This document shows, in pieces, positions 50 to 57,400 of a stretch of DNA of 64,000 bases. Origin of the DNA: Escherichia coli (GTDB lineage: Bacteria; Pseudomonadota; Gammaproteobacteria; Enterobacterales; Enterobacteriaceae); assembly GCF_050920415.1 (NCBI RefSeq), contig NZ_CP169309.1; one strand, 5' to 3'. The notes below the pieces were generated by a model. The model was not told the DNA's origin and searched no databases. It saw nothing but the letters and a program-made list of their open reading frames with translations. The position numbers were made by a program, and so were the translations under genes. Position 1 is the first letter of the stretch, and each line of letters starts with the position of its first letter.

Positions 50-1669
50 ATGGCCAAAGCACCAACTAAAAAAGCCAAAGCAAAAAAAGGCTTTGAAGAA
101 ACATTATGGGATACCGCAAACCAGCTTCGCGGTAGCGTTGAATCCTCCGAATACAAGCACGTGGTGTTGAGCCTCGTGTTCCTGAAATTCATCAGCGATA
201 AGTTTGAAGCACGCCGCAAAAAAATGATTGCCGATGGGCAAGCAGACTTCCTTGAGATGGAAGTGTTCTACCAGCAGGACAACATTTTCTACCTGCCGGA
301 AGAGGCGCGCTGGTCATTTATCAAACAAAATGCCAAACAGGACGATATTGCGGTCCGTATTGACACCGCCCTCTCGACCATTGAGAAACGTAACCCAACG
401 CTGAAAGGCGCGCTGCCAGACAACTACTTCAGCCGTCAGAATCTGGAAACCAAAAAACTGGCGTCACTGATTGATACCATCGACAACATCGAAACGCTGG
501 CACACGAAACTGACGTTGAAACGTTATCGAAAGAAGACCTGGTCGGACGCGTTTACGAATACTTCCTCGGTAAGTTTGCCGCAACTGAAGGCAAAGGCGG
601 TGGTGAGTTCTACACGCCTAAATGTGTGGTTACGCTGTTAACTGAAATGCTCGAACCCTTTCAGGGCAAAATTTATGACCCGTGCTGCGGCTCGGCAGGG
701 ATGTTCGTGCAGTCGGTGAAGTTTGTCGAGAGCCATCAGGGTAAAAGTCGTGATATCGCGCTGTATGGTCAGGAACTGACAGCCACGACGTATAAACTGG
801 CAAAAATGAACCTCGCTATTCGCGGTCTTTCAGCTAACCTCGGCGAACGACCGGCAAACACTTTCTTTAGCGACCAGCACCCGGACCTGAAAGCTGACTA
901 CATTCTGGCGAACCCGCCGTTCAACCTGAAAGACTGGCGCAATGAAGCCGAATTAACCAAAGACCCACGTTTTGCTGGGTATCGTATGCCGCCAACCGGT
1001 AACGCCAACTACGGCTGGATTTTGCATATGCTCTCCAAGCTGTCGGCTAACGGCACAGCAGGTTTTGTACTGGCAAACGGTTCGATGAGTTCTAACACCA
1101 GCGGCGAAGGCGAGATCCGTGCACAGATGATCGAAAATGATCTGATCGACTGCATGATCGCCCTACCTGGACAGTTGTTTTACACCACGCAGATCCCGGT
1201 GTGTTTATGGTTTATGACCAAATCGAAGGCTGCCGACCCGGCCAAAGGTTATCGTGATCGTCAGGGCGAGACGCTGTTTATTGATGCGCGTAACCTCGGC
1301 ACCATGATTAGCCGCACAACTAAAGAGTTAACAGCGGAAGATATTGCCACAATCGCCGATACTTACCATGCCTGGCGCAGCACGCCGGAAGAACTGGCTG
1401 CACGGATTGCGCGTGGTGACAGCAAGCTGGAAAAATATGAAGACCAGGCTGGCTTCTGCAAAGTTGCGACCCTGCAAGACATTAAAGATAACGGCTACGT
1501 TCTGACACCGGGCCGCTATGTAGGTGCAGCCGAGCAGGAAGAGGACGGCGTGGCATTTGAGACCAAAATGCGTGAATTGTCGAAGACGTTGTTTGAGCAG
1601 ATGAAGCAGGCGGAAGAACTGGATCGTGCGATTCGCCAGAATCTGGAGGCGCTGGGTTATGGGGAGTAA
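50..1669 (+). CDS. hsdM: Type I restriction-modification methyltransferase subunit (HsdM)
   Basis: 539-aa ORF with AdoMet-binding motif DPCCGSAGMF and N6-adenine catalytic motif LANPPF; followed by an overlapping specificity-subunit gene. Sequence differs from EcoKI HsdM, so the family is not K-12-like. Confidence 0.9.
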   Translation: MAKAPTKKAKAKKGFEETLWDTANQLRGSVESSEYKHVVLSLVFLKFISDKFEARRKKMIADGQADFLEMEVFYQQDNIFYLPEEARWSFIKQNAKQDDIAVRIDTALSTIEKRNPTLKGALPDNYFSRQNLETKKLASLIDTIDNIETLAHETDVETLSKEDLVGRVYEYFLGKFAATEGKGGGEFYTPKCVVTLLTEMLEPFQGKIYDPCCGSAGMFVQSVKFVESHQGKSRDIALYGQELTATTYKLAKMNLAIRGLSANLGERPANTFFSDQHPDLKADYILANPPFNLKDWRNEAELTKDPRFAGYRMPPTGNANYGWILHMLSKLSANGTAGFVLANGSMSSNTSGEGEIRAQMIENDLIDCMIALPGQLFYTTQIPVCLWFMTKSKAADPAKGYRDRQGETLFIDARNLGTMISRTTKELTAEDIATIADTYHAWRSTPEELAARIARGDSKLEKYEDQAGFCKVATLQDIKDNGYVLTPGRYVGAAEQEEDGVAFETKMRELSKTLFEQMKQAEELDRAIRQNLEALGYGE

Positions 1670-2975
1670 GTGGGAAACAGTTAGACTTGGTGATTTAACA
1701 AAGTGGTCATCAGGTGGAACACCTAATAAATCGGAGGATTCATATTGGAATGGTACTATTCCGTGGATTAGCGCGTCCTCTATGGAAGGTCATTTATATA
1801 GCGATTCAAAGCTAAAAATAACTGAAGATGGCTTAATAAATGGCTCTCGACTCGCCCCTGCTAATAGCATTCTTCTTTTAGTAAGAGGCAGTATTCTTCA
1901 TCAAAAAATTCAAGTAGGTTTGGCTACAAAGGCTGTTGCATTTAATCAAGATGTAAAATGTCTCATAGTCAATAATGATATGATTGATCCTTGGTATCTT
2001 TTGCTATGGTTTAAAGCAAAAGAACAAGATCTACTAAAAATAGTAGAAAGCACTGGGATAGGCGCAGGGAAGCTTGACACTAAATTATTAATGGATTACC
2101 CAGTTGAAATTCCACCAAAAGAGATTAAAGAATATATCCGTTTTTTGGGGAAAGCGATTTTTGATAAAATAACGCTCAACGAAAATATAAACTATAATTT
2201 GGAAAAAATGTCCCAAACCTTGTTCAAATCCTGGTTTGTGGATTTTGATCCGGTGATTGATAACGCTCTGGATGTCGGAAATCAAATCCCGGAAGCCCTG
2301 CAAGCTCGTGCCGAATTGCGTCAAAAAGTACGTAATAGTGCAGATTTCAAACCACTTCCGACGGAAATCCGCTCGCTTTTCCCAAGTGAATTTGAAGAAA
2401 CGGAGTTAGGTTGGGTACCAAAAGGTTGGGAAATTGGAAAACTTCAAGACTTACTTATTTTACAAAGAGGATTTGATCTTCCTTCTACCCAAAGAAATAT
2501 CGGTTTACACCCAATAATAGCTGCTAGTGGCTATAATGGCACACATGACATCGCAATGGTGAAAGCCCCTGGGATTGTTACTGGCCGCTCTGGTGTATTA
2601 GGTAATGTTTTCCTAATCCTTGAAGACTTCTGGCCTCTGAATACAACGTTGTGGGTAAAAGAGCTAAAACATGCTACACCATGTTACGGATATGAGTTAC
2701 TTAAAATGATAGATTTCTCTTCATTTAATGGCGGTTCAGCTGTTCCAACATTAAACCGTAATCATATTCACAATTTGGATTACTTGCTTCCACCAAGAAA
2801 TTTAATTGAGAAATTTGAGTTATTTTCTATGTCGTTATATAGACAAGTTCACGAATTCAAAAAACAAGCCCAAACCCTAACAGCCCTCCGCGACACCCTG
2901 CTCCCGAAACTCATCTCCGGCGAGCTATCCCTGGAAGATCTTCCGGATCTCAGCACCGATACAGAAGCTGCATAA
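1659..2975 (+). CDS. hsdS: Type I restriction-modification specificity subunit (HsdS)
   Basis: Two AT-rich variable blocks (about 1680-2220 and 2400-2850) flank a GC-normal conserved core, the usual two-TRD HsdS layout. Likely start ATG 1659 overlaps the hsdM stop (ATGGGGAGTAA), suggesting translational coupling; the ORF track starts it at 1626. Confidence 0.85.
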   Translation: MGSKWETVRLGDLTKWSSGGTPNKSEDSYWNGTIPWISASSMEGHLYSDSKLKITEDGLINGSRLAPANSILLLVRGSILHQKIQVGLATKAVAFNQDVKCLIVNNDMIDPWYLLLWFKAKEQDLLKIVESTGIGAGKLDTKLLMDYPVEIPPKEIKEYIRFLGKAIFDKITLNENINYNLEKMSQTLFKSWFVDFDPVIDNALDVGNQIPEALQARAELRQKVRNSADFKPLPTEIRSLFPSEFEETELGWVPKGWEIGKLQDLLILQRGFDLPSTQRNIGLHPIIAASGYNGTHDIAMVKAPGIVTGRSGVLGNVFLILEDFWPLNTTLWVKELKHATPCYGYELLKMIDFSSFNGGSAVPTLNRNHIHNLDYLLPPRNLIEKFELFSMSLYRQVHEFKKQAQTLTALRDTLLPKLISGELSLEDLPDLSTDTEAA

Positions 2976-3069
2976 CGCATTTTGCCCCTGTAAAATCAGG
3001 GGCTTTCTGGTAAGGTTTTCTACTGATACGGGAATGCTTACCAGAAATTAGCCAGGGTTGGAGCGCGAT

Positions 3070-6000
3070 ATGAGTCTCTCTTTCAGTGAAGCAAAATTAG
3101 AACAAGCGATCATTGAACTGTTACAGGATCAGGGATATCAACACCTGATCGGCGATAATGTCCCACGTTCAAGTCTCGATCAGGTCATTATCGAAGACGA
3201 TCTCCGTCATTATTTAGCGGCACGCTACCAGCCTGATGGCATTACTGAAGAAGAGATTCAGCGACTGATCAAACAGTTCACCACGCTCCCCGCTTCCGAT
3301 CTTTATGAAAGCAACAAAACATTTTGTCGCTGGCTGGCAAATGGTTTTCTGTTCAAACGCGACGATCGGCAACAAAAAGATCTCTATATTGAATTGCTCG
3401 ACACCCGGCATCTACCTGCCGCACTGCGCCAGATATTTGACGCCGAAGATGTCCCGTTGCAACAGGCGGCGGAACTCCCGCCCTCCTATATTAATCCGCC
3501 GCTTAACCGGATTAAGATTGTTAACCAGCTTAAAATCTCCGGTAAAGATAATCAGACTCGTATTCCTGACGGCATTCTCTATATCAACGGTCTGCCACTG
3601 GTCGTCTTTGAATTTAAAAGTGCGGTGCGCGAGCAGGATGCCAGTATTGGCGATGCCTGGAAGCAGCTCTGTAAACGCTATCGCCGGGATATTCCGCAAC
3701 TGTTTATCTACAACGCGCTCTGCATTATTAGCGATGGCGTAAATAACCGGATGGGCAACCTGTTTGCGCCCTATGAATACTTTTACTCATGGCGCAAAGT
3801 CACCGGTAATGAAAACCGTGAACAGGACGGAATTCCGTCATTGCACTCAATGATTCAGGGGCTGTTTCATCCGGTACGTCTGCTGGATGTGATTAAAAAC
3901 TTTATCTGCTTCCCGGATAAAGCCAGGCACGAAGTAAAAATTTGCTGCCGATATCCGCAGTACTATGCCGCCCGCAAACTCTATTACAGCATCAAGCAAG
4001 CGCGTAAACCTTTCGGTAGCGGTAAAGGCGGCACCTACTTTGGCGCAACGGGCTGTGGCAAAAGTTACACCATGCAATTTTTAACGCGTCTTTTGATGAA
4101 GAGCGTGGAGTTTGCCAGCCCGACCATTGTTTTGATCACCGACCGCACCGATCTGGACGATCAGCTTTCTGCGCAAATGTGCAATGCCAAAAATTACATT
4201 GGCGACGACACCATCGTTCCTGTTACCAGCCGTGAAGATTTGCGTAATCAACTGGCGGGACGCAATAGTGGCGGTGTATTCCTGACAACGATCCATAAAT
4301 TCACCGAAGACACCGAACTCCTTTCTGAACGCAGCAATATCATTTGCATCTCGGACGAAGCACATCGCAGCCAGGTTAACCTCGACCAGAAAGTCATCGT
4401 CGATAAAGAAAGCGGAAAAGTGCGCAAAACTTATGGCTTTGCGAAATACCTGCACGATTCACTGCCAAACGCCACCTATGTTGGCTTTACCGGCACACCG
4501 ATTGACGCGACGCTCGATGTCTTCGGTGAGGTGATCGACAGTTACACCATGACCGAATCCGTTCAGGATGAAATCACTGTACGCATCGTGTACGAAGGCC
4601 GTGCGGCTAAAGTGATCCTGGACTCCAGCAAACTGGAAGAAGTCGAAAAGTATTACGAAGAGTGCGCAAACGCAGGCACCAATGAGTGGCAAATCGACGA
4701 AAGCAAGAAAGCCACGGCTACCATGAATGCGGTTCTGGGTGATGAAGATCGGTTAAAAGCCCTCGCGGAAGATTTTGCTAAACATTATGAAAAACGCGTA
4801 GCCGAAGGTTCCACCGTAAAAGGCAAAGCCATGTTTGTTTGCACCAGCCGTGAAATTGCCTGGGATTTCTACCGCCAGCTTAAAGCTATTCGCCCTGCCT
4901 GGTTTGAAGTGAAGCAAGCCCCCGATGGCGTCGTCCTGACGGAACAGGAGCAGAAAGAGTTACCGCCTTCAGAAATGGTGAAGATGGTCATGACGCGCGG
5001 TAAAGATGACGACGAGGCGCTTTATGATTTACTGGGCACAAAAGAATATCGTAAAGAGCTGGATAAGCAGTTCAAAAACGCTAAATCGAATTTCAAAATT
5101 GCCATTGTCGTTGATATGTGGCTGACCGGTTTCGACGTTCCTGAACTGGATACTATCTATATTGATAAACCCTTACAAAAACATAACCTTATCCAGACCA
5201 TTTCTCGCGTTAACCGTAAACTGGAAGGCAAAAGTAAAGGGTTAGTGGTGGACTATATCGGCATTAAGAGTCAGATGAACCAGGCACTGGCAATGTATTC
5301 CCGCATTGATGCCACCAACTTTGAAGATATTCAGCAATCGGTAATAGAAGTTAAAAACCATCTCGATTTGTTGGGGCAAGTCTTTTACGAATTTGACAGT
5401 CGGGATTATTTTAGTGGTGAGCCGCAAGCGCAATTATCCTGCCTCAACCGCGCGGCGGAATTCGTTCTGAGTACCCAGAAAGTTGAACGTCGTTTTATGG
5501 GACTGGTTAAACGCATGAAAGCCGCCTACGACGTCTGCTGCGGCAGCGAAGCATTATCACAGACAGAACGTGACTATATTCACTATTATCTTGCTGTTCG
5601 TTCAATTGTTTTCAAACTGACGAAAGGTGACGCACCGGATGTTACCCAGATGAATGCACGCGTTCGCGAAATGATTGCAGAAGCGTTAAAAGCTGATGGC
5701 GTAGAAGAGATTTATTTTCTTGGCGATAAAAAAGCGGAATCCATCGATATTTTTGACGAAGATTATCTGGCGCGAATTAACAAGATCAAACTTCCGGCAA
5801 CGAAGATCCAGTTATTACAAAAATTACTGGAAAAAGCAATCAGCGACTTCAAGAAAGTGAACCAGTTGCAAGGGATTAACTTCACCCGCCGCTTCCAGGC
5901 GATTATAGATCGTTATAATGAGCGGCGAGAAGATGATGTACTCAACGGTGAAGAATTCGATACATTCAGTCAGGAAATGACCGATATTATCTATGATATT

Positions 6001-6372
6001 AAAACCGAAATGGGCACCTGGGCCGACTTAGGCATTGATATTGAAGAAAAAGCCTTTTTCGACATTCTTGCTCATATGCGCGATAAATATCAGTTCACCT
6101 ATGACGATGAAAAAATGCTGTCACTGGCAAAAGAGATGAAAAGCGTGGTTGACAACACATCGAAATATCCTGACTGGAGTAAACGCGATGATATTAAAGC
6201 GAAACTGAAAGTTGAACTTATTCTGCTTCTACACAAGCATAAGTTCCCGCCAGTAGCGAATGATGATGTTTATATGGGTGTGCTGGCACAGGCAGAGAAT
6301 TTTAAAGAACATCATATGAGTGCTTTAAATTACTATGAACGCCGGATACACTTTGTTATCCGGCCATTGTGA
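3070..6372 (+). CDS. hsdR: Type I restriction enzyme endonuclease/translocase subunit (HsdR)
   Basis: About 1100 aa; N-terminal PD-(D/E)xK-like nuclease motif (YINGLPLVVFEFKSA), Walker A-like GATGCGKSYT and DEAH-type motif II (ICISDEAHRSQ); GGAG RBS 7 nt before ATG 3070. Gene order is M-S-R, unlike the K-12 R-M-S order. Confidence 0.85.
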   Translation: MSLSFSEAKLEQAIIELLQDQGYQHLIGDNVPRSSLDQVIIEDDLRHYLAARYQPDGITEEEIQRLIKQFTTLPASDLYESNKTFCRWLANGFLFKRDDRQQKDLYIELLDTRHLPAALRQIFDAEDVPLQQAAELPPSYINPPLNRIKIVNQLKISGKDNQTRIPDGILYINGLPLVVFEFKSAVREQDASIGDAWKQLCKRYRRDIPQLFIYNALCIISDGVNNRMGNLFAPYEYFYSWRKVTGNENREQDGIPSLHSMIQGLFHPVRLLDVIKNFICFPDKARHEVKICCRYPQYYAARKLYYSIKQARKPFGSGKGGTYFGATGCGKSYTMQFLTRLLMKSVEFASPTIVLITDRTDLDDQLSAQMCNAKNYIGDDTIVPVTSREDLRNQLAGRNSGGVFLTTIHKFTEDTELLSERSNIICISDEAHRSQVNLDQKVIVDKESGKVRKTYGFAKYLHDSLPNATYVGFTGTPIDATLDVFGEVIDSYTMTESVQDEITVRIVYEGRAAKVILDSSKLEEVEKYYEECANAGTNEWQIDESKKATATMNAVLGDEDRLKALAEDFAKHYEKRVAEGSTVKGKAMFVCTSREIAWDFYRQLKAIRPAWFEVKQAPDGVVLTEQEQKELPPSEMVKMVMTRGKDDDEALYDLLGTKEYRKELDKQFKNAKSNFKIAIVVDMWLTGFDVPELDTIYIDKPLQKHNLIQTISRVNRKLEGKSKGLVVDYIGIKSQMNQALAMYSRIDATNFEDIQQSVIEVKNHLDLLGQVFYEFDSRDYFSGEPQAQLSCLNRAAEFVLSTQKVERRFMGLVKRMKAAYDVCCGSEALSQTERDYIHYYLAVRSIVFKLTKGDAPDVTQMNARVREMIAEALKADGVEEIYFLGDKKAESIDIFDEDYLARINKIKLPATKIQLLQKLLEKAISDFKKVNQLQGINFTRRFQAIIDRYNERREDDVLNGEEFDTFSQEMTDIIYDIKTEMGTWADLGIDIEEKAFFDILAHMRDKYQFTYDDEKMLSLAKEMKSVVDNTSKYPDWSKRDDIKAKLKVELILLLHKHKFPPVANDDVYMGVLAQAENFKEHHMSALNYYERRIHFVIRPL

Positions 6373-6452
6373 ATTAACGTTAATTTCTCTTCCAGATATC
6401 TCCAGTAACGCTTTTATTATTTTCTATTTTTAGCTGGACTTTCCCTGTATTT

Positions 6453-6470
6453 ACTGATGATATGTCCAGG
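6453..6470 (+). promoter_or_regulatory. Candidate LexA box (CTG-N10-CAG) upstream of symE
   Basis: TACTGATGATATGTCCAGG matches the CTG-N10-CAG SOS-box spacing about 80 bp upstream of the symE start; symE is a known SOS-induced gene. Confidence 0.4.
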
Positions 6471-6546
6471 TATTTAGCGCGGTGCGGATGTGCGCCAACA
6501 CACCCGCACCGCTAATCACAATCCCTATTTCTAAGGAATAGTAATC

Positions 6547-6888
6547 ATGACTGACACGCATTCTATTGCACAACCGTTCGAAGCAGAAGTCTCCCCGGCA
6601 AATAACCGTCAATTAACCGTGAGTTATGCGAGTCGCTACCCGGATTACAGCCGTATTCCCGCCATCACCCTGAAAGGTCAGTGGCTGGAAGCCGCCGGTT
6701 TTGCCACCGGCACGGCGGTAGATGTCAAAGTGATGGAAGGCTGTATTGTCCTCACCGCCCAACCACCCGCCCCCGAAGAGAGCGAACTGATGCAGTCGCT
6801 GCGCCAGGTGTGCAAACTGTCAGCGCGTAAACAGAAGCAGGTGCAGGAGTTTATTGGGGTGATTGCCGGTAAACAGAAAGTCGCCTGA
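6547..6888 (+). CDS. symE: SOS-induced toxin SymE (AbrB-fold, type I toxin-antitoxin toxin)
   Basis: 113-aa ORF recognised as SymE, in the conserved position beside the hsd genes. Confidence 0.85.
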
Positions 6889-6934
6889 TACATTGACCCG
6901 GTAGCGCCAGTGCTACCGGGTATTATTCGCCACG

Positions 6935-9028
6935 TTATACCAACGCGCTCTCCATCTGTTTTTCAAATGCCTGACGGATTAATCCCATAATGTAAGGAAG
7001 TTGTGCGAGGTCGCTGAAACCAATTTCTACATCGCCATTGCCCCAGCGCCCAACATTTGTGACATCTTTGGCAATACCTTTCGGATCGACCAGTTCATGA
7101 AACTGCATATTAAGCGACAATCGCAGTCGGCTTTTTTGCGGCACAACATCAACAAAATTCGTTTCCGCTTTAAACGCAATATAGAGCTTCAATACTTCCT
7201 GCGTGATCCCTGCGTCCAGGCGCATAACTTCATCGCGAAGATGATCGAATAACACCCGGCTATGCGAACCATCAGCAAGAAAAGGATAATCACTCAGGCT
7301 GTAACTGGTTTTGTTCTCCGGCTGCGCCCGATAAACAGCTAAAACCTCTTCAGGAAGAGCAGGCGCTTGCCAGACCTGAACCGCGAGATCGGCCAGACGA
7401 TCGGCTCGGGCGTGAATGGCAGCTTCATCCCATTTTTCGCACTGTCCAAGACCGATATTCAAATAGAGCGGGCTATGTTTAAAGCCATCTTCAATATCGC
7501 GTTTTTCCGCGAAAGGTCTGTCACTGTAGCGGGAGTTATAGCGCGTTAATGTGAGATTCCCCAACGTATGCAACAGTTCTTTATGCACACGCTGCCAGTC
7601 GCTTCCCAGCTCTTCACGCCATTTAGCCGACAAATTTTCGTTCTGCGGCATAATGTGCTCAATCGTAAACTCTTCCACGCGCTCTCTGCGTTTATCGTTT
7701 TCCAGTCGTCGTAACCAGTAACTGCGACTGCGGAAGTTATAGAGATCGCGAACTTTTAATTCCCGTTTAAATTCATCATCGTTGGGGAAACGACGATATG
7801 AAGGTAGATTCAGAAAATGTACCTGAATACTTTCCAGATAATTTTCTTTATTAATAACTTTATAAAAAGTGGCAAACGTCTTGTTAAGAGAATTTGTCGG
7901 AATCGCACATACTGCACGGCGGAAAACATAAGATTCAATTGAACGAATTATGCTCAGGAAATCTTCGTGAGACAAATCGCCATTTTTATAGTCATGATAA
8001 AGCGCCAGTAAGAAAGGATACGCTACATCGACCTTTAACTCGCGCAAATCCTGAAAAGCCGTAGCAAGCGATTTGTCACTTTCTTTTCCCAATGCCATTG
8101 CACAGTAATACTCCGCGTAGATGTGAATATCTTCAACCAGCCGATCTACGCCTTTTTCAGCAACACTCTGGCTACGGGCATGTAGTTTAAATGCCTCATA
8201 GACTTCATCTGTCCGAGGGATCTCCCCCGTTTTTACCGTCAGATAATGACGCATAAAACTGTCAAAATATTCGCTGTAACCTTGCTGACCAAAAGCGACT
8301 TCCATTGGACGCCAGTGATCTTCATACAACCGGGTTTGATGCTCTGGTTCGAGGCCCATCAGGATAAAATTGCGCACCAGATCGGCCTGACTTAACGCCT
8401 TACCGGTGGAGTTCATACTTTCAAAAATCAGTTGCGGATTATCCTGGCCACGATTAAGTGCCACATCGACAATTAATAACTTTGCTAACCCACGACATAA
8501 GGGGATCAAGTCATCACCGAGTTTGGCAATTTGCTCATCAAAGAAAGTAAAGTTTTCCATTATTCGATGGGAATAGTTTTCTGGCATTGGTCTTTGTTTT
8601 ATTAACGCCAGTAGACTGTCTTTATCAGTCTCGGTCAGCAGTAATTTAAAACCTTTCTCGCCGGACTCATAAGGATTGAGCAAATAATAATTACGCAATT
8701 TCATTGCCGAAAAGCCATCAAAAACTTCGTCTTCGCCAAGATGGCGCGATAAAGCCTCAATCAGCAACATTGCGGTCGTCAGCCGCTGCTGACCATCAAT
8801 GACCAGCAACGGAGAAATACCAGAAACCTGATACAACCCCTGCTCAATATAAACAACCGAACCGATAAAATGCGCTGATATATCGTCACGCTTTCCGGCA
8901 CGAATGATGTCGTCCCAAAGTTGCCGACATTGTTGCCCGGTCCATGAATAGGTGCGTTGATAAATGGGAATAACAAACTGCTGCGAACGTTTTAAAAAAT
9001 CGAGTAGGCGAGCCTCTGTGGCTTTCAT
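6935..9028 (-). CDS. DUF262/DUF1524 two-domain nuclease, GmrSD-like putative modification-dependent (type IV) restriction enzyme
   Basis: 697-aa ORF; N-terminal DUF262 hallmark DGQQRLTT, C-terminal His-Me-finger-like region (EHIMPQNE...). Sits where K-12 carries mcrBC. Confidence 0.7.
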   Translation of the reverse strand: MKATEARLLDFLKRSQQFVIPIYQRTYSWTGQQCRQLWDDIIRAGKRDDISAHFIGSVVYIEQGLYQVSGISPLLVIDGQQRLTTAMLLIEALSRHLGEDEVFDGFSAMKLRNYYLLNPYESGEKGFKLLLTETDKDSLLALIKQRPMPENYSHRIMENFTFFDEQIAKLGDDLIPLCRGLAKLLIVDVALNRGQDNPQLIFESMNSTGKALSQADLVRNFILMGLEPEHQTRLYEDHWRPMEVAFGQQGYSEYFDSFMRHYLTVKTGEIPRTDEVYEAFKLHARSQSVAEKGVDRLVEDIHIYAEYYCAMALGKESDKSLATAFQDLRELKVDVAYPFLLALYHDYKNGDLSHEDFLSIIRSIESYVFRRAVCAIPTNSLNKTFATFYKVINKENYLESIQVHFLNLPSYRRFPNDDEFKRELKVRDLYNFRSRSYWLRRLENDKRRERVEEFTIEHIMPQNENLSAKWREELGSDWQRVHKELLHTLGNLTLTRYNSRYSDRPFAEKRDIEDGFKHSPLYLNIGLGQCEKWDEAAIHARADRLADLAVQVWQAPALPEEVLAVYRAQPENKTSYSLSDYPFLADGSHSRVLFDHLRDEVMRLDAGITQEVLKLYIAFKAETNFVDVVPQKSRLRLSLNMQFHELVDPKGIAKDVTNVGRWGNGDVEIGFSDLAQLPYIMGLIRQAFEKQMESALV

Positions 9029-9465
9029 CCTGGCGTCCTTCCGTGAAGCAATAATGACGCAATAATAACCACTTCCTTGTGAAGGTTATAGCGAAATCCG
9101 GTTTATCCGCGATGAATTGCCCCCTCACTCCACATCCTCCCTGCGTAACCCAATATCTCTCAACCGCTCATCACTCATCTGCTGTAACACGCGTCGGGTC
9201 TGCATTTGCCGCCGCCAACGCCTCACCGCCTGCCAGAGTTGCACCAGGCCGATAAACGGCGCTTTAGCTCTGTTTTCGTGAAATTCCATCTGCTGCCTCC
9301 TCATCTTTCAGAGGCTTCATCATCCGCCTTCTGGCAGTTCACAATACAGATGCAAATATTAGTTTTATTTAACATACAGACAGGTTAAAACAACATCTGC
9401 ATCCGGTTTTTTAGCCTCATCTGTACCGGTTTTTCTCTCTGTATGGTCCAAATAAGGAGTACAGC

Positions 9466-25100: not shown

Positions 25101-26047
25101 TGCCTCGCTTGAGGCGGATAAAAATATTCACCAGTCGGTTACGGTTACCGTGGTCCCAAACAGGGAACAATCGGTAATTATTTTGAATGCCGGATCGGGC
25201 AGTACGATTGCTAACAATACAGATACCGTTACCCTGACTGCCAGTGTGAAAGATGTTTATGGACACTCACTACCGGATGAGGATGTGAAATTTACCTTGC
25301 CAGCATCTATGACAGGGAACTTCACGCTAAGTAGTGACACCGCTCGCACCGATTCAAACGGCAATGCCGTGGTCACATTGCGAGGCACAAAAGCGGGTGA
25401 GTTTACAGTGACGGCGACACTGAGCAGAAATAATACCAGTGCTAATCAGCTAGTCTATTTTATTGGGGATACAAGCAGCGCGCAGCTCCAGCCGCTGACT
25501 GCCTCATTAAATACCATAGTTGCTGGCAACAGTACGGGGAGTACCCTGACAGCAACGATCCTGGACGCTTACCAAAATCCGCTTAAAGACCAACAGGTCA
25601 CTTTCCAGAGTAACGATGTCACACTAAGCGGAACAGAAGTCACCACCAATACGCAGGGTCAAGCGACGGTAATAATGACCAGCAATATTGCCGGACAACA
25701 TAACGTAGTGGTGAGCCGGAAAGCGCAATCATCCGATAATAAAACGTTTAGTTTATCAGTGCTCCCGGATGAAAGTTCGGCGAAGATAATAAGTATAACC
25801 GGAGCCGAAAAAACGATAATGGTTGGCGAAAACATCACGCTACGAATACACGTACAGGATGCGTTTAATAACGTCATAGCCGGTCAACGCGTCAGATTAA
25901 GTGCGCTGCCAACAGCTAACATTACGATAGACGATACGGCTTACACCGATAATAACTAGACTGGCCCCCTGAATCTCCAGACAACCAGTATCACTTAAAT
26001 AAGTGATAGTCTTAATACTAGTTTTTAGACTAGTCATTGGAGAACAG

Positions 26048-26413
26048 ATGATTGATGTCTTAGGGCCGGAGAAACGCAGACGGCGTACCACACAGGAAAA
26101 GATCGCAATTGTTCAGCAGAGCTTTGAACCGGGGATGACGGTCTCCCTCGTTGCCCGGCAACATGGTGTAGCAGCCAGCCAGTTATTTCTCTGGCGTAAG
26201 CAATACCAGGAAGGAAGTCTTACTGCTGTCGCCGCCGGAGAACAGGTTGTTCCTGCCTCTGAACTTGCTGCCGCCATGAAGCAGATTAAAGAACTCCAGC
26301 GCCTGCTCGGCAAGAAAACGATGGAAAATGAACTCCTCAAAGAAGCCGTTGAATATGGACGGGCAAAAAAGTGGATAGCGCACGCGCCCTTATTGCCCGG
26401 GGATGGGGAGTAA
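26048..26413 (+). CDS. insC: IS2 transposase OrfA (InsC)
   Basis: 121 aa from [24 protein letters not shown], with HTH region. Confidence 0.9.
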
Positions 26414-27276
26414 GCTTAGTCAGCCGTTGTCTCCGGGTGTCGCGTGCGCAGTTGCACGTCATTCTCAGACGAACCGATGACTGGATGGATGGCCGCCGCA
26501 GTCGTCACACTGATGATACGGATGTGCTTCTCCGTATACACCATGTTATCGGAGAGCTGCCCACGTATGGTTATCGTCGGGTATGGGCGCTGCTTCGCAG
26601 ACAGGCAGAACTTGATGGTATGCCTGCGATCAATGCCAAACGTGTTTACCGGATCATGCGCCAGAATGCGCTGTTGCTTGAGCGAAAACCTGCTGTACCG
26701 CCATCGAAACGGGCACATACAGGCAGAGTGGCCGTGAAAGAAAGCAATCAGCGATGGTGCTCTGACGGGTTCGAGTTCTGCTGTGATAACGGAGAGAGAC
26801 TGCGTGTCACGTTCGCGCTGGACTGCTGTGATCGTGAGGCACTGCACTGGGCGGTGACTACTGGCGGCTTCAACAGTGAAACAGTACAGGACGTCATGCT
26901 GGGAGCGGTGGAACGCCGCTTCGGCAACGATCTTCCGTCGTCTCCAGTGGAGTGGCTGACGGATAATGGTTCATGCTACCGGGCTAATGAAACACGCCAG
27001 TTCGCCCGGATGTTGGGACTTGAACCGAAGAACACGGCGGTGCGGAGTCCGGAGAGTAACGGAATAGCAGAGAGCTTCGTGAAAACGATAAAGCGTGACT
27101 ACATCAGTATCATGCCCAAACCAGACGGGTTAACGGCAGCAAAGAACCTTGCAGAGGCGTTCGAGCATTATAACGAATGGCATCCGCATAGTGCGCTGGG
27201 TTATCGCTCGCCACGGGAATATCTGCGGCAGCGGGCTTGTAATGGGTTAAGTGATAACAGATGTCTGGAAATATAG
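26371..27276 (+). CDS. insD: IS2 transposase OrfB (InsD), DDE integrase-like catalytic domain
   Basis: 301-aa ORF overlapping insC in the -1 frame, the IS3-family frameshift arrangement. Confidence 0.9.
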
Positions 27277-29098
27277 GGGCAAATCCACTAACGGCTATGC
27301 GTACGTTAACCTTATCAGCACCCAGCCTGGGGTCTATCAGGTGACAGCATCGCTGGACAATAACAGTAGTCGTAAAGTTGACGTGAGTGTGGCAAAGGGC
27401 AAACTCGAGTTAACATCATCGAAGCCAGAAACCACGGTCCATAACAGTGAAGGTATTACACTGACCGCAACGGCAAGAAATATTCAGGATGAATTGATGC
27501 CGGGGCAAATTATCACCTTTAGCGTAACACCTGATGGTGCAACGCTAAGCAATACAGGGGAAATCCTGACTGATCAGTCAGGTCAGGCCAAAGTGACGCT
27601 GACCAGTGACAAAGTCAATGTATATACCGTTACGGCCACAATGGGCAAAGACGTTCCCGTTCAGAGCCAGGTGACGGTTGCGGTTAAGGCTGATGCTACA
27701 ACGGCACATGTTGTGAGTGTAGTGGCTTCTCCTGACACCATAATCGCCGACGGGGTTGATAGCAGCACCATCACTTCACGAGTAGAAGATGATTATGGAT
27801 TCCCGGTTGAAGGTGTCGACGTTAGTTACAGCTTAGACACCAAAGGCAGCCCGGTGATTAATAATCCAACTACGCGTACCGATCAGTCCGGGCAAGTCAC
27901 GGCGACAATAACAGGTACATTGGCAGAAGCTCTAATTGTCAATGTTCAGGTCCCTGGCACAGTCCACAAATCCGCAGCCATTACATTGATTCCTGGTACG
28001 GCAGATGAAAGTAAATCAACATTGAAATCTAGCGTTAGCTCTTTTATGGCTGACTTCCAGGAGAGCGCGACACTTACGTTAATATTGCAAGACAAGTACG
28101 GTAACCCGATAGTGACGTCTGATCATCTGGAATTTGTCCAGTCAGGTGCCTACGTGAACCTCCTGAAGTTGAGCAATATTGATTACAGCCAAAGAAATTA
28201 CGGCGAGTACACCGTCACTGTCACTGGCGGCGTAGAGGGCAGAGCGACTCTCATTCCTATGCTGAACGGTGTTCATCAAGCAAACTTAAGCATATCACTG
28301 GATCTTGTCCGCTCAATAAAAGACATGCACGGTCATGTAACAGTCAACAACCATACCTTCACAACGGCTACATTCCCCAGTGAAGGTTTTATAGGGGCGT
28401 ACTACACACTTAATGATGACAACTTTGAAGCGGGTAAAACCGTTAGTGATTATATGTTCACAAGTTCACAGAGTTGGGTGTCTGTCGATGCTTCAGGTAA
28501 AGTTTCTTTCACAAATACCGGCGACCAAACTTCAGTCGTAATAAGCGCTGTTCCCAGACAAGGAGGTACAACCTACCAGACATTAATTAAGCTGAAAGGC
28601 TGGTGGGTGAATCATGGGAATCAAACCAATATCTGGCTAACTGCCAATGCGTTCTGCAACGCGAAAAGTGATGGATATAATCTTCCTGGCGTCGCACATT
28701 TAACGTCTGGCGAAAACAAACGCACGTTGGGATCGCTATATGGTGAGTGGGGGAACGTTGGGGAGTTTTCCAGTGATTCGCAATTTACCGCGGGTGCTTA
28801 CTGGACCAATCAACAGGATGATTACAATAGTCACGTCTATGTGCAGATGCTGACGGGCAGGATTGGAAGCGACGCAGATTCCAGCGCTCAACTAACTGCC
28901 TGCCGTAAATCACTTTAATTTCTGAAGTAGTTATTAAAGGATACCCTTTTGCGAGGGTATCCTTTCAGACTCATGACAAAAGCCAAATTGCCTGATGCGC
29001 TACGCTTATCAGGCTTACACTATCTCTCTAATATATTGAATTTTTATGCTTTTGTAGGGAGCACAAGGCGTTTATGCCGCATCTGGCACGAGCAAACA

Positions 29099-52909: not shown

Positions 52910-53890
52910 ATGAACGCAATAATATCGCCCGATTATTACTATGTTCTTACCGTTGCTGGTCTGTCTAATGCCATGGCGTATGGCGAAGGACTGCCATTAC
53001 CGGACAGGGAAGATACGCCTCATCCCAGAATTAAACAATTAGCGAGATTTGCGCATACGCATCCCGGAGGCCCGTCATGTCACTTTAACGACATTATTCC
53101 ACTGACTCACTGCCCACACGATGTTCAGGATATGCAGGGTTATCACCATCCTCTGGCAACGAATCATCAAACACAGTACGGCACCGTTGGCCAGGCTCTG
53201 CATATTGCACGGAAATTACAGCCCTTTATTCCTGATAACGCGGGGGTTCTCATCGTTCCATGTTGCCGTGGCGGATCGGCTTTTACTGCGGGCAGCGAAG
53301 GGACATATTCAGAACGGCACGGAGCCAGCCATGATGCTTGTCGTTGGGGAACGGATACCCCTCTATACCAGGATTTAGTCAGCAGAACGCGAGCCGCACT
53401 GGCAAAAAATCCGCATAACAAATTCCTCGGCGTATGCTGGATGCAAGGCGAATTTGACTTAATGACAAGTGACTACGCGTCACACCCTCAACACTTTAAT
53501 CATATGGTTGAAGCCTTTCGTAGGGATCTAAAACAATACCATTCTCAGCTTAATAATATTACTGGCGCGCCGTGGTTTTGCGGCGATACCACCTGGTACT
53601 GGAAAGAAAGTTTCCCTCATGCGTATGAAGCTATTTATGGCAATTATCAAAATAATATTTTAGCCAATATTATTTTCATCGACTTCCAGCAACAAGGTGA
53701 AAGAGGGCTGACGAACGCGCCTGATGAAGATCCGGACGATTTAAGCACGGGATATTTCGGTTCAGCGTACCGGTCACCGGAGAACTGGACGACGGCACTG
53801 CGAAGCAGTCATTTCAGCGCGGCAGCCCGTCGGGGGATTATTTCTGACAGGTTTGTAGAAGCAATTTTGCAGTTTTGGAGCGAAAGGTGA
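52910..53890 (+). CDS. nanS: 9-O-acetyl-N-acetylneuraminate esterase NanS
   Basis: 326-aa ORF recognised as NanS/YjhS. Confidence 0.85.
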   Translation: MNAIISPDYYYVLTVAGLSNAMAYGEGLPLPDREDTPHPRIKQLARFAHTHPGGPSCHFNDIIPLTHCPHDVQDMQGYHHPLATNHQTQYGTVGQALHIARKLQPFIPDNAGVLIVPCCRGGSAFTAGSEGTYSERHGASHDACRWGTDTPLYQDLVSRTRAALAKNPHNKFLGVCWMQGEFDLMTSDYASHPQHFNHMVEAFRRDLKQYHSQLNNITGAPWFCGDTTWYWKESFPHAYEAIYGNYQNNILANIIFIDFQQQGERGLTNAPDEDPDDLSTGYFGSAYRSPENWTTALRSSHFSAAARRGIISDRFVEAILQFWSER

Positions 53891-54472
53891 GCGGGGAGTT
53901 TATTCATGGGGGATGTCCTTGTCCGTTCCCAAAACAGGCAACAAAAAACAAATGAGATCAAGGTAATATCTCTTCACTTGCAGGCTCGAACAGCAGGCAA
54001 TTGCCAATATAATAATCTGGCACAAGGGTGAAAAACGCGCACCGCATAAACCGTTGTTATTGCTTAAAGATTAGCCGGATGCCTTAATAGACATCCGCGC
54101 CTTTTCGATTATGGCTCGGAAATCTACGAACCTCTGCACAGTTTACTGGAACGTTTTGGACCACAGCGTTCACAGTACCGACCTGATATGCCGTTCTGGC
54201 GATTATAAGGCGACGGATTCTGGCAAATAGACGATGATAATATGCTTAATGATGTTCAAAGAAATTAGGCCATCATTATATTATTGCTTGCATTTTCTTT
54301 CATTCCCAAAAGCACCCGCCATTAATCCCAGGCGCATTATGCAAAGGAAAATGATTAGGTAAACAATAAGATTTATAATCAGGAAAGGCGACTCGCAATA
54401 AAACGCAAAGTCGCCTTAACATTGGTAAAATATGCCCTTTACTACTCCTGTATCATGAACGGCTCATCACAT

Positions 54473-57400
54473 TTAAAGCTGACGTTGATCCAGACTGCTA
54501 TATATTGCCTTTATTTCATTTTTTACGCTTTCGCCACGGTACACCAAAGACGTATCGTATCGTTGATACTTATCTTCCCGTGCAGCACTGAACCAGTTAA
54601 AAGATCCGACACACAGCAGTTCTTCATCCTCAATCACAATTTTGCTGTGGACACGATTAACCAATTTCGTAGCGATACCCATCTTATTGAGCTTTTCAAC
54701 AGCATCATTCAGCAGATGTTTTTTCTCCTGACGCTTATCATCATCGACATGCGCTATATTGCAGTTTTTATCCGTCACCACAGTAATATCAATGCCCCGG
54801 GAACGGGCCAAAGCCATTGATGCCAGAAATCCCGTTTGCTCCATTTTTTGCCAGGATAACCAAGGGGAAATAATCGTTATTTTCTTTTGAGCTCCGGCAA
54901 GAGTCATGTTCAAAAATTCATCATGCTGCTCCACGCCATGCAGCGTTGAAATTTGTGTATGTGCGGAAATTAAATCCTGTCGTTTATGAAACTCAAATTG
55001 CAACGCATTATTATCTGAAGAAAAGAGATATTTTGCCAATAACCCTCGCGGCGAAAATGCGGGCTGCATCTCGATAAGGTCCATATCGCCAAATACCAGA
55101 AAACTATCTTTAGCGCGTGAGACAGCAACATTGAGGATACTGCTGTTGCTATCAAGAAACCTGCCATCTTCATGTTTTGAGTAGACTGGAGAAAAGAGAA
55201 CAATCGCCCTTTCCGCCCCCTGCAAGGAGTGCACAGTCCCCACTGTCAGTGAACCCTCCTCGTCTTTGCCATTAATTTCCAGCTTACGCAATGACGTTTT
55301 GATAGCATTAACCTGCGCCGAAAATGGCGTCACAACACCAACAACTTTGTACAGTGGTTCCCCGTAATGGCGCTCTATATCATCCTTATGTGCCACCAGC
55401 CATGCTGCTATTGTTTCAGCTTCAAGAGGGTTATAACGGCTCCCCCCATTTGGCTTCATGCCTCTACCATCAATATGTAAATATCCCATTGCGGGGAAAA
55501 TCGTCCCTTTTTCCATCCCTCTTTTAGGCTGCAACTTACCGTGATAGCAAAGTGAGTTACAGTAGCCGATGATGTTATTGAAACAGCGACGATGCTCATA
55601 CAGATACATTCCGCGCTCGAACTTGGGATCATACTGGTAGTGAGAGTTAAACTGGGCTACCTGCATTACGCTGCCAGATGCTGCACTTTTTCCAGACCCA
55701 CACACGTGAGTATATGTATTTATTAACTCTTCCTGAGTGCCACCAGAAATAATATTCTCCTCAAGCATATTGCCCATATCAGTGACGGGTAGACAATTCC
55801 AGATTGGAGCTATTTGCTCCGTATCGCCAATCACCAGCGCTTTCTTCGCCAATGCAAAGGAAGCTGCAGCAACCTCCGGGAGTACCTGCCCGGCTTCATC
55901 GACAATCAGTAAATCAGCAAAGTTATATAAATAATTATTATCCGATGTTCTATCGCCACCAAAAGATTTTCTTCTGTTCATATGGTAAGGCAACATGTAG
56001 CAGGTCATCACCACACAAGGAGTAAGTTTCATTCTTCTTAGCCAACGAGCCTCGGCGATAGTTATCCCGGTAATTCCTTTTTCTTTTTGCAAATTATCTA
56101 TAGCTGCCATATCAATCAGCCAACGCCCCTCCCAATAATGGGTCGCTACCAAGAACGCTGGAAAACGAATCTGAGTATCGGCAAGTTCATCCGCTCCTGA
56201 AAGATTCAATTCATCGTCACCTCTGTAACCCAAAGCATAAGTCAACTCACGCCATTGTTTTGCAGCTTCTATTTCGCGTCGGGCTATATCCTTCGCATAG
56301 TTGATGTTCTGTTGGCACTCATCCTGCTCCTTTTGCGTTTTAGCAATCAAACTATCAATAAATTCATCAATATCTTCGGGATAATTTCCCTGGAACGATG
56401 TCATTCTTGTGCCAAACGTAGAGTCCAGGAAGAGGTTAATCTGGTAATGGCGTTTAGTACGAACAGCAGGAAGCCATGACAAAACCGCATACACTAGCGA
56501 CTCATCAGCACGGTATTGCTGCCACTGCTTTTTACCTCTTGTTAAAAGTGAAATTTCATTGCCAATATTGAGAAGACGTGTGTTTTCGTCCTGAAGATAC
56601 TGGTCGAGATTCTCACTGATGGCTCGCTGTTCATGGCGGATATCATTAAGCCTGCGCCATGTGGGTTCGATTTGCTGAAGTTGAATAAACTGTGAAGTTA
56701 AACGTTCATGCAAAAGCGTCACTACATGCTCTGGTGAATTGCACTCTCCAGCTCCAAACGCCACCTCCGCTTTTTCAAGGTAAAATGCCCGGGCTTTTTC
56801 CAGATATTCCTGGGATTCAACGTGGTTAAAAAAATCTTCAGTCTGGTATTTCTTCGCAGCCTCAACCTGACGGCTTTTAGACGGAAAATAAGCGCCATAG
56901 CTTATTACCTCCGGCAACCAACGACCAGCCATTACGCCAAAACCAGTAGAGAAATCTTTTCCAAAGGCTTCAATAATATTGGTGACGGCCTGATTGTTAG
57001 TTGATGTGGCAATAATTACAGGAGGTTCAGCTTGATTAAGTGCGGCTCTAGTCCATTCGGTGGCGATAATAGAAAGCACCAGCGTAGTTTTACCCGTTCC
57101 CGGAGGACCGTTAACAGCGAGCATATCCCCCTGCTGTTGAGTCAGATAATGGCTCAGGGCATCGCGCTGCGCCACTGCCAGCGGAAACTTATCGCCGGAA
57201 TGCCCCAGACGTTCGCAGAACATAGCATTCTTAGCGAGAAGTGGCTCTAGTGGAACCATTTCATTTGAGGCAAAACGCGTTAATAGAGGAACCTTAACCT
57301 GGCTCATCAGCAGATGGTCATACAAAGGCAGGATATGAACACTGGCCCCTACATGCTGGCTAGCTTTAACAATATAACCGTATCCAGCCCGTTCGTATGG

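Follow-up and report, generated by a model that had tools for sequence, protein, structure and literature searches.

A 697-codon gene (plus stop) in a 64,000-nucleotide stretch of Escherichia coli DNA (NZ_CP169309.1, positions 6935-9028, minus strand; the whole stretch is hereafter called the window) was found to encode a DUF262-DUF1524-DUF5655 protein, and its assignment as a GmrSD-family defence nuclease is near certain. The gene is free-standing, without partner modification genes nearby, and the locus is the E. coli Immigration Control Region (ICR). On balance, the protein appears to be an autonomous, nucleoside triphosphate (NTP)-dependent His-Me nuclease that restricts modified DNA, a reading that is modestly favoured. 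The gene and its exchange for mcrBC are already in the literature (He et al. 2015; EcoSal Plus 2025; CLS_001 in Nat Commun 2025). New here are the recognition of a third domain with a known type of fold, the placement of DndI as nearest relative, conservation between bacteria and archaea, a measured linkage to type I restriction-modification (R-M) genes, and the mis-annotation of the gene in RefSeq.

He et al. (2015; PMC4437046) listed gmrSD homologues in this region and stated that they replace mcrBC; the copy at the locus in avian pathogenic E. coli (APEC) O1, APECO1_2080, was just 24% identical to Eco94GmrSD. In Supplementary Dataset 6 of Silas et al. (2025, Nat Commun 16:7828; PMC12373910) the family is CLS_001, the largest enterobacterial GmrSD cluster, with the RefSeq proteins at the locus in O157:H7, uropathogenic E. 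coli (UPEC) 536 and O104:H4, and the 74%-identical D782_3934 (P0028), among its members. As far as the accessible parts of that paper go, representatives were synthesised for each of the 15 GmrSD groups into which 20 clusters had been gathered, so that CLS_001 should be among them. Five extra systems, left unnamed in the main and supplementary text and in the source-data list, restricted T-even phages. The 2025 review (EcoSal Plus) placed GmrSD in 12% of ICR loci, and Dnd in ~2% of those at hotspot 37, a defence hotspot close by. That GmrSD-family genes are linked to type I loci in general had been published by Machnicka et al. (2015), as had the name RloF.

Domain organization and active-site conservation

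The open reading frame (ORF) starts with ATG and is uninterrupted, as seen in both the ORF list and the translation. No longer upstream start is possible, and MKATEA stands at the N-terminus of all homologues. An earlier, sequence-only reading of this DNA had described a 697-residue ORF with the motifs DGQQRLTT and EHIMPQNE; both motifs were located, and their coordinates verified (Table 1). Its DUF262 and DUF1524 assignments were borne out by a profile check (Pfam E 4.1e-34 and 1.6e-26), and the catalytic motifs proved invariant. Its picture of a two-domain nuclease was right as to the presence of DUF262 and DUF1524, but overlooked a third Pfam domain, DUF5655, and a helical middle region. 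The protein has the features that define GmrSD-family membership, namely DUF262 with DGQQR, DUF1524 with (D/E)H...N...N, and the fusion of both in one polypeptide. NCBIfam contained no family matching the 697-residue protein.

An alignment of 48 homologues revealed that DGQQR (D78-R82) and residues E457, H458, N491 and N498 are invariant, and invariant residues were also found across the DUF262 domain. The residues defining both active sites do not vary, and the protein is best viewed as an NTP-gated His-Me finger defence nuclease. The full-length AlphaFold2 (AF2) model was of moderate quality (pLDDT 75.8) with a poorly modelled DUF262 core, and was used solely for the match to DndI described below, not for domain contacts.

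The C-terminal domain

DUF5655 is as well conserved as the enzymatic parts of the protein: mean identity across homologues was 72% in this domain and 72% in the helical middle region, against 73-77% in the catalytic domains, and fell to 44% in the variable linker (aa 554-590) that precedes DUF5655. By sequence, the C-terminal 144 residues gave no match in the PDB even at E 10, and fold comparison was used instead. An AF2 model of aa 554-697, built from 43 diverse sequences, was confident (pLDDT 93.9). In this model DUF5655 is predicted to be a YjbR/YdhG/CyaY-like alpha-beta sandwich, which superposes on solved members of that fold. The YjbR-like fold is used for protein, ligand and DNA binding.

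The domain is a mobile module. It was found in 1447 protein clusters, where it occurs alone, in two to three tandem copies, or on other GmrSD-type proteins, and in some clusters it follows a weakly PD-(D/E)XK-like N-terminus. In the literature searched, the domain was mentioned once, in an unrelated genome report. Tandem arrangements of two or three copies were seen in P0241, P0137, P0133 and P0200; P0241 has three of them behind an N-terminal region that weakly resembles HSDR_N_2/NucS_C (PD-(D/E)XK-like). These arrangements suggest that DUF5655 is a general accessory of restriction-type nucleases.

Relationship to DndI and other characterised systems

The best solved relative was DndI of Salmonella enterica Cerro 87 (PDB 9JFL; phmmer E 1.4e-12), which was also the sole significant whole-protein fold match (Foldseek E 7e-13, template modelling score 0.40-0.46). 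The best PADLOC model, 'Orf5' (PDLC02693), was covered end to end; orf5 is the original name of dndI. Because the match is significant in both sequence and fold, DndI serves as a precedent for an NTPase-gated His-Me nickase. The two proteins share a DUF262 NTPase, a helical region and a DUF1524 His-Me nickase domain in one chain, and both families are genetically tied to R-M-type operons. DndI differs, however, in that identity is 18-19% only and DUF5655 is lacking. It also needs phosphorothioate (PT) modification by dndBCDE for self-protection and is toxic without it, whereas the window gene and its orthologues have no accompanying dnd genes. No dndBCDE or dndFGH was annotated in the 64-kb window or in the Pfam-annotated contexts; across the window, as annotated in the identical record NZ_CP169399.1 (which differs by one IS2 position), neither dnd nor ssp genes were present.

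The sequence-only reading had taken fused DUF262-DUF1524 proteins in general to be modification-dependent type IV enzymes, a generalization that is contradicted by SspE and DndI (PMC11662687). DndI is freed from PT-marked self DNA and SspE is activated when it senses PT; phage DNA without the mark is what both act against. Because these two proteins read marks of the host, the DUF262-DUF1524 architecture does not settle the self/non-self logic of the window protein. The PT-sensing Tyr25 of DndI was considered as a discriminating residue and rejected; it aligns with the tyrosine of the YQR motif, which is invariant in the clade and common to DndI and SspE. SspE itself combines DUF262 and DUF1524 and is weakly similar in its N-terminal region (E 4e-6; PADLOC SspE E 3e-20, aa 4-97 only). 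The similarity is confined to the motif region (aa 4-99), however, and activation of SspE needs sspABCD PT marks; for the window protein, neither full-length similarity to SspE nor ssp genes nearby were found.

The GmrSD prototypes (E. coli CT596 GmrSD, Eco94GmrSD and UTI89_C2960) resemble the window protein in having GmrSD_N and GmrSD_C, DGQQR and the (D/E)H motif, and in being encoded by a single gene in E. coli. They differ in being prophage-borne, in their size (~600-630 aa), in the lack of DUF5655, and in sequence, as the low identity of the APEC O1 copy illustrates. A glucosylated hydroxymethylcytosine or hydroxymethylcytosine (glc-hmC/hmC) substrate and inhibition by IPI* have been demonstrated for the prototypes, whereas the window protein is known from its sequence. 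BrxU, from the BREX island of E. fergusonii pEFER, is likewise a DUF262-DUF1524 enzyme that sits inside another defence operon and acts independently. It is the best analogy for those orthologues that are embedded in type I operons, although its host system is BREX rather than type I, and it has no DUF5655. RloF of the Campylobacter jejuni type I loci (Machnicka et al. 2015) is likened to this family by gene arrangement and not by sequence: a DUF262 gene lies between hsdS and hsdR, as it does in 9 of the 41 well-flanked loci described below, whereas the window gene stands outside the hsd operon, convergent with it, with symE in between.

Orthologues in other species and linkage to type I operons

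A large protein database contained full-length orthologues of 697-703 residues with all three domains and 69-84% identity. In a cross-species scan that took one genome per species, the best 80 loci were analysed; they were 62-99% identical over the whole length, and came from many bacterial phyla and from methanogenic archaea. Among the archaeal orthologues, those of Methanosaeta (70%), Methanosarcina (64%) and Methanococcoides (65%) illustrate how little the protein varies: from E. coli to methanogenic archaea, Actinomycetota and Planctomycetota, identity remains at 62-77%. Plasmid-borne copies were found in cyanobacteria, Rhodobacterales and Arthrobacter, and almost none in phages.

Clustering of the neighbours in the 80 loci revealed HsdS (31 loci), HsdM (25) and HsdR (34) as the only recurrent partners within 5 kb. 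A dedicated partner modification gene was sought among these species-level loci and rejected, as only antisense shadow ORFs of hsd recur besides hsd itself. No dnd or ssp genes were present in any orthologue context inspected. Of the 41 loci that had 4 kb or more of sequence on each side, 27 had hsd genes within 5 kb. These hsd genes were on the same strand in 25, usually overlapping or at most 30 nt apart, often with 4-bp overlaps; the remaining 14 (34%) had no hsd genes within 5 kb. These figures for the type I linkage of the subfamily are new. The order of the GmrSD-like gene (X) relative to hsd varies (M-S-X-R, M-X-S-R, (M-)S-R-X and X-M-S); Salinivibrio (L011) and Kiritimatiella (L005) provide examples of hsdM-hsdS-X-hsdR. 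HsdM and HsdR encoded next to X share only 24-53% identity with their window counterparts, compared with more than 62% for the GmrSD-like protein itself. Among orthologues, the arrangement of Escherichia, in which the gene stands outside the hsd operon and on the other strand, is the exception, and within E. coli the type I genes next to it belong to at least two different families.

One metagenomic contig (L024) carries tandem full-length paralogues (4817-6913 and 7001-9094; 698 and 697 aa) without type I genes nearby. Two metagenome bins, labelled 'Bacillota bacterium' (L027, 297-2387) and 'Collinsella sp.' (L030, 290-2212), contain the gene at 98-99% identity to E. coli, and in L027 it is accompanied by hsd genes of the E. 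coli style on the other strand; these copies are most likely mis-binned E. coli DNA rather than the result of recent transfer.

Distribution and integrity in E. coli

The gene was present in 1403 of 5426 complete E. coli genomes, of which 1287 have at least 80% of it, and a cluster of the 697-residue protein comprised 3852 member sequences. Copies in E. coli are almost all 95-99% identical to that of the window, and among the complete genomes NZ_CP169399.1 alone has an identical one. UPEC 536 carries a 96.9% identical copy in the same position. Translation gave uninterrupted 697-codon ORFs in the window, in UPEC 536 and in two other sampled strains. Between the window and UPEC 536 there are 64 nucleotide differences and 7 amino-acid differences, a ratio that points to purifying selection.

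RefSeq/PGAP splits the identical sequence into a 387-aa coding sequence with an internal start and an N-terminal 'frameshifted' or 'incomplete' pseudogene. The same split was found on three other sampled intact copies (the split copies, all of the same gene as in the window, are at L001 9001-11094, L018 3001-5094, and L019 and L021 301-2394), and two RefSeq features lay under every full-length match among the matches listed from E. coli genomes. The two-feature split of intact alleles is an annotation artefact, and was presumably propagated from alleles that are truly broken. Such alleles exist: that of O157:H7 has lost 1 bp near codon 268, and when full-length rows were sampled at even spacing, 16 of the 54 shared its 2093-bp length. 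Other inactivated alleles include the O104:H4 copy with a W239* nonsense mutation, one with an IS1 insertion in a single genome, and several with deletions.

Further members of the family were noted elsewhere in the ICR. In EDL933 (O157:H7; L002 741-2392), a further pair of DUF262 (285 bp) and HNH (1359 bp) genes lies on the yjiA side; its identity to the window protein is just 22-39%, and together with the frameshifted copy on the symE side it makes two GmrSD-type loci in one island. A second allele (P0021; L012-L014 8001-10100), 76% identical and belonging to a cluster of 595 members, occupies the other end of the ICR, and is represented also by D782_3934 of Enterobacteriaceae FGI 57. It adjoins yjiA/BrnA, divergent from an hsdM-S-R operon and roughly at the mrr site of K-12; its location shows that the ICR can hold this family in two slots.

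The locus and its counterpart in K-12

Annotation and comparison with K-12 agree that the gene, a neighbour of symE and hsd, fills the site of mcrBC in K-12, as the sequence-only reading had proposed; the agreement of domains, motifs and locus could hardly arise by chance. In the alignment to MG1655 (K-12), homology stops at ~6885 and restarts at ~9120, and the intervening K-12 DNA is 7.6 kb of yjiT-yjiV-mcrC-mcrB. A decayed remnant of the other cassette in either genome was considered and rejected, since blastn and tblastn detected no remnant of the GmrSD-like gene in K-12 and none of mcrBC in the window. The G+C content of the gene (0.44-0.45, versus 0.54-0.56 in the adjoining yjiR region) fits horizontal acquisition.

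McrBC and the GmrSD-like protein share the slot between yjiS and symE, and NTP-dependent, modification-dependent restriction is proposed for both. They are not homologous, however: McrBC pairs an AAA+ GTPase with a PD-(D/E)XK nuclease, as opposed to a ParB-like NTPase with a His-Me finger, and is encoded by two genes rather than one, in a K-12 cassette that also holds yjiT and yjiV. That the protein takes over the modified-cytosine restriction of McrBC is what its position alone would suggest.

The hsd genes form a separate transcription unit that is convergent with the GmrSD-like gene, with symE in between. The inverted repeat between symE and the GmrSD-like gene (Table 1) is probably, as judged by its sequence, a terminator shared by the two; it was not detected by a consensus terminator scan of 6400-9500. 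The accompanying promoter scan of the same interval found no sigma-70-like promoter upstream of the gene, but it returned fewer sites than in shuffled sequence and is hence uninformative. Transcription could proceed from the promoter of yjiS, which is on the same strand, with the GmrSD-like gene 96 nt downstream.

Table 1. Positions of the GmrSD-like gene, its domains and motifs, and the flanking features in the window.
Feature	Position	Strand	Basis
GmrSD-family DUF262-DUF1524-DUF5655 protein, ~81 kDa	6935..9028	-	ORF/translation, Pfam, PADLOC Orf5 PDLC02693 E 3.7e-223
N-terminal DUF262/GmrSD_N (PF03235; ParB/Srx-like NTPase), aa 9-222, with IPIYQRxYSW motif	8363..9004	-	Pfam E 4.1e-34
DGQQR motif within IDGQQRLTT, aa 78-82; presumed NTP-binding signature of DUF262	8783..8797	-	Translation check, alignment
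All-helical middle region, aa 226-414, between NTPase and nuclease domains	7787..8353	-	AF2 secondary structure, pLDDT mostly 80-96
DUF1524/GmrSD_C (PF07510) His-Me finger nuclease domain, aa 415-547	7388..7786	-	Pfam E 1.6e-26
Candidate catalytic residues E457-H458 (in EHIMPQNE), N491, N498	7655-7660, 7556-7558, 7535-7537	-	Translation check, alignment
C-terminal DUF5655, aa 591-690	6959..7258	-	Pfam E 3.4e-13
symE, conserved flank of the swapped cassette	6547..6888	+	NCBIfam equivalog E 2.9e-69, RefSeq, K-12 homology to ~6885
yjiS (DUF1127), other conserved flank, 96 nt upstream of the GmrSD-like start	9125..9289	-	Translation, RefSeq, K-12 homology from ~9120
Type I R-M genes hsdM (50-1669), hsdS (to 2975), hsdR (3058-6372)	50..6372	+	PADLOC, NCBIfam, RefSeq
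Perfect 9-bp inverted repeat CCCGGTAGC-6 nt-GCTACCGGG between convergent symE and GmrSD-like gene	6896..6921	.	Read by eye

Proposed mechanism and alternative readings

In the favoured mechanism, the N-terminal ParB-like DUF262 domain, with its DGQQR motif, would bind and hydrolyse NTP, and NTP turnover would drive a conformational switch of the protein on DNA. The helical middle region would transmit this switch to the DUF1524 His-Me finger (E457-H458, N491 and N498), which would then nick or cut the DNA. The YjbR-like DUF5655 would form an integral fourth module, most likely an extra reader of DNA or modified bases, or a regulatory surface. Nuclease and NTPase activity, the dependence on modification, and the role of DUF5655 are what we infer for this protein. 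Autonomy is favoured because neither dnd nor ssp genes are annotated in the window, because the gene is far commoner than Dnd in E. coli, and because it occurs with unrelated type I systems or with none. Type IV-like logic is favoured because the gene has been inactivated repeatedly and independently, as type IV genes are; both this and the mcrBC slot in K-12 are consistent with type IV restriction genes. The literature, including PMC4437046 and PMC12373910, treats the gene as a gmrSD homologue or a type IV candidate.

Several observations weigh against restriction of modified DNA by an autonomous enzyme. DndI, the closest characterised homologue, is not modification-dependent but is restrained by the modification of its own host (PMC11662687). 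The 24% identity of APECO1_2080 to Eco94GmrSD (PMC4437046) leaves a wide distance to the GmrSD prototypes, and BrxU gave neither a sequence match at E<=1 (phmmer) nor a fold match at E<=10 (Foldseek). Conservation of 62-77% across phyla is unlike the rapid diversification of GmrSD enzymes driven by phage inhibitors (PMC12373910). Furthermore, two thirds of the orthologues are translationally coupled to hsd, which could reflect functional coupling rather than hitch-hiking. An unlikely alternative is that the protein works as DndI and SspE do: a constitutively competent nuclease would be kept off self DNA by a host mark, in type I operons perhaps HsdM/HsdS N6-methyladenine (m6A), and would attack unmarked incoming DNA. 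The mark would stimulate the NTPase and release the protein from DNA, making it a second restriction arm of the R-M system and not a type IV enzyme. It is supported by homology, DndI being the best match by sequence and fold and Orf5, the best PADLOC model, being dndI, and by an operon parallel (dndI with dndFGH, X with hsdR). dndI is co-transcribed with the restriction genes dndFGH beside modification genes, much as X lies on the same strand as hsdM/S/R in 25 of the 41 well-flanked loci, often with 4-bp overlaps. However, dnd and ssp genes are absent from the annotation of the window and from all inspected contexts, about a third of the well-flanked loci have no hsd genes, and the E. coli gene is separate, convergent and found beside at least two type I families. 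With partner HsdM proteins only 24-53% identical and specificity subunits that differ, a reader of the mark would have to ignore sequence context, and such a context-blind reader would also find Dam m6A on phage DNA grown in E. coli. The tyrosine that DndI uses to sense PT is, moreover, the generic one of the YQR motif and does not discriminate.

The type I linkage also admits a guard or back-up role like that of PrrC, in which the protein would be silenced by the type I complex or by the normal state of the cell, and freed once the type I enzyme has been put out of action by an anti-restriction protein of a phage, with DUF5655 as the sensing or docking surface. The strength and specificity of the linkage (hsdS, hsdM and hsdR being the sole recurrent neighbours), the precedents for genes embedded in type I loci set by PrrC (in the review) and RloF (Machnicka et al. 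2015), and a DUF5655 domain that is conserved like the catalytic domains and has a fold used in protein, ligand and DNA binding all speak for such a role. It is nonetheless less likely than the DndI-like alternative, and improbable in itself, because the insertion point varies and the Hsd partners are very divergent compared with a nearly constant X, a pattern that speaks against a specific fit between the proteins. There are also loci where X stands alone, and one with two paralogues in tandem but no hsd, and the E. coli gene lies outside the hsd operon. A broader proposal, to which we give little credence, is that this is a distinct three-domain clade and a mobile accessory of type I R-M operons rather than a substitute for McrBC, one that would, perhaps by means of DUF5655, read either host methylation or the state in which the type I complex is found, and act as a second, independent nuclease arm. 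It is very improbable that the copy in the window is a decaying or silent relic without function, like the O157:H7 and O104:H4 alleles. The RefSeq annotation of the identical sequence as a 387-aa coding sequence plus pseudogene, the many E. coli copies that are truly broken, and the failure of the consensus scan to find a sigma-70-like promoter upstream would fit a relic. Yet the ORF is uninterrupted with all catalytic residues intact, the 7 amino-acid changes among 64 nucleotide changes reflect purifying selection, the RefSeq split is an artefact that also affects three other sampled intact copies, and the yjiS promoter, 96 nt away on the same strand, could drive the gene.

Other features of the window

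The sole PT-related trace in the window is a frameshifted and truncated fragment annotated as a 'phosphorothioated DNA-binding restriction endonuclease'. It adjoins the leuX tRNA-Leu and yjhR, a helicase gene (fragment and neighbours together at 54000-54205, 54473-57988 and 58292-58376), and the region is the nearly empty 'hotspot 37' defence island of the literature. An intact gene for a 318-aa Rpn-family recombination-promoting nuclease lies at 11120-12076 on the minus strand; its K-12 counterpart is the pseudogene rpnD, and the EDL933 copy is frameshifted. A 685-aa pentapeptide-repeat gene (17727-19784), annotated in EDL933 as the type III secretion system effector EspX6, falls in a patch of markedly low G+C (0.33-0.37). 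Besides sharing the identical GmrSD-like gene, NZ_CP169399.1 matches the aligned blocks of the window at 99.99-100% identity (BLAST). The window has a 1331-bp IS2 at 25957-27287 inside the inverse-autotransporter gene iatD, which is thereby disrupted, and has no IS2 at the nanM-nanS intergenic site (52962-52966), where NZ_CP169399.1 carries one; the two sequences therefore stem from sister isolates or assemblies.

Implications

The gene is present in roughly one in four complete E. coli genomes, and censuses of defence systems that are based on RefSeq will under-call or mis-call the family. Architecture alone cannot separate a protein that cuts modified DNA from one that is restrained by host modification, and the default type IV label needs experiment. 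If the proposal of a type I accessory is true, this GmrSD-like clade would equip type I restriction with another nuclease that acts independently. For a defence nuclease, the clade shows unusual conservation, and its linkage to type I operons is strong; it thus offers a tractable test of whether a second effector is routine in type I systems, and of what the DUF5655 module reads.

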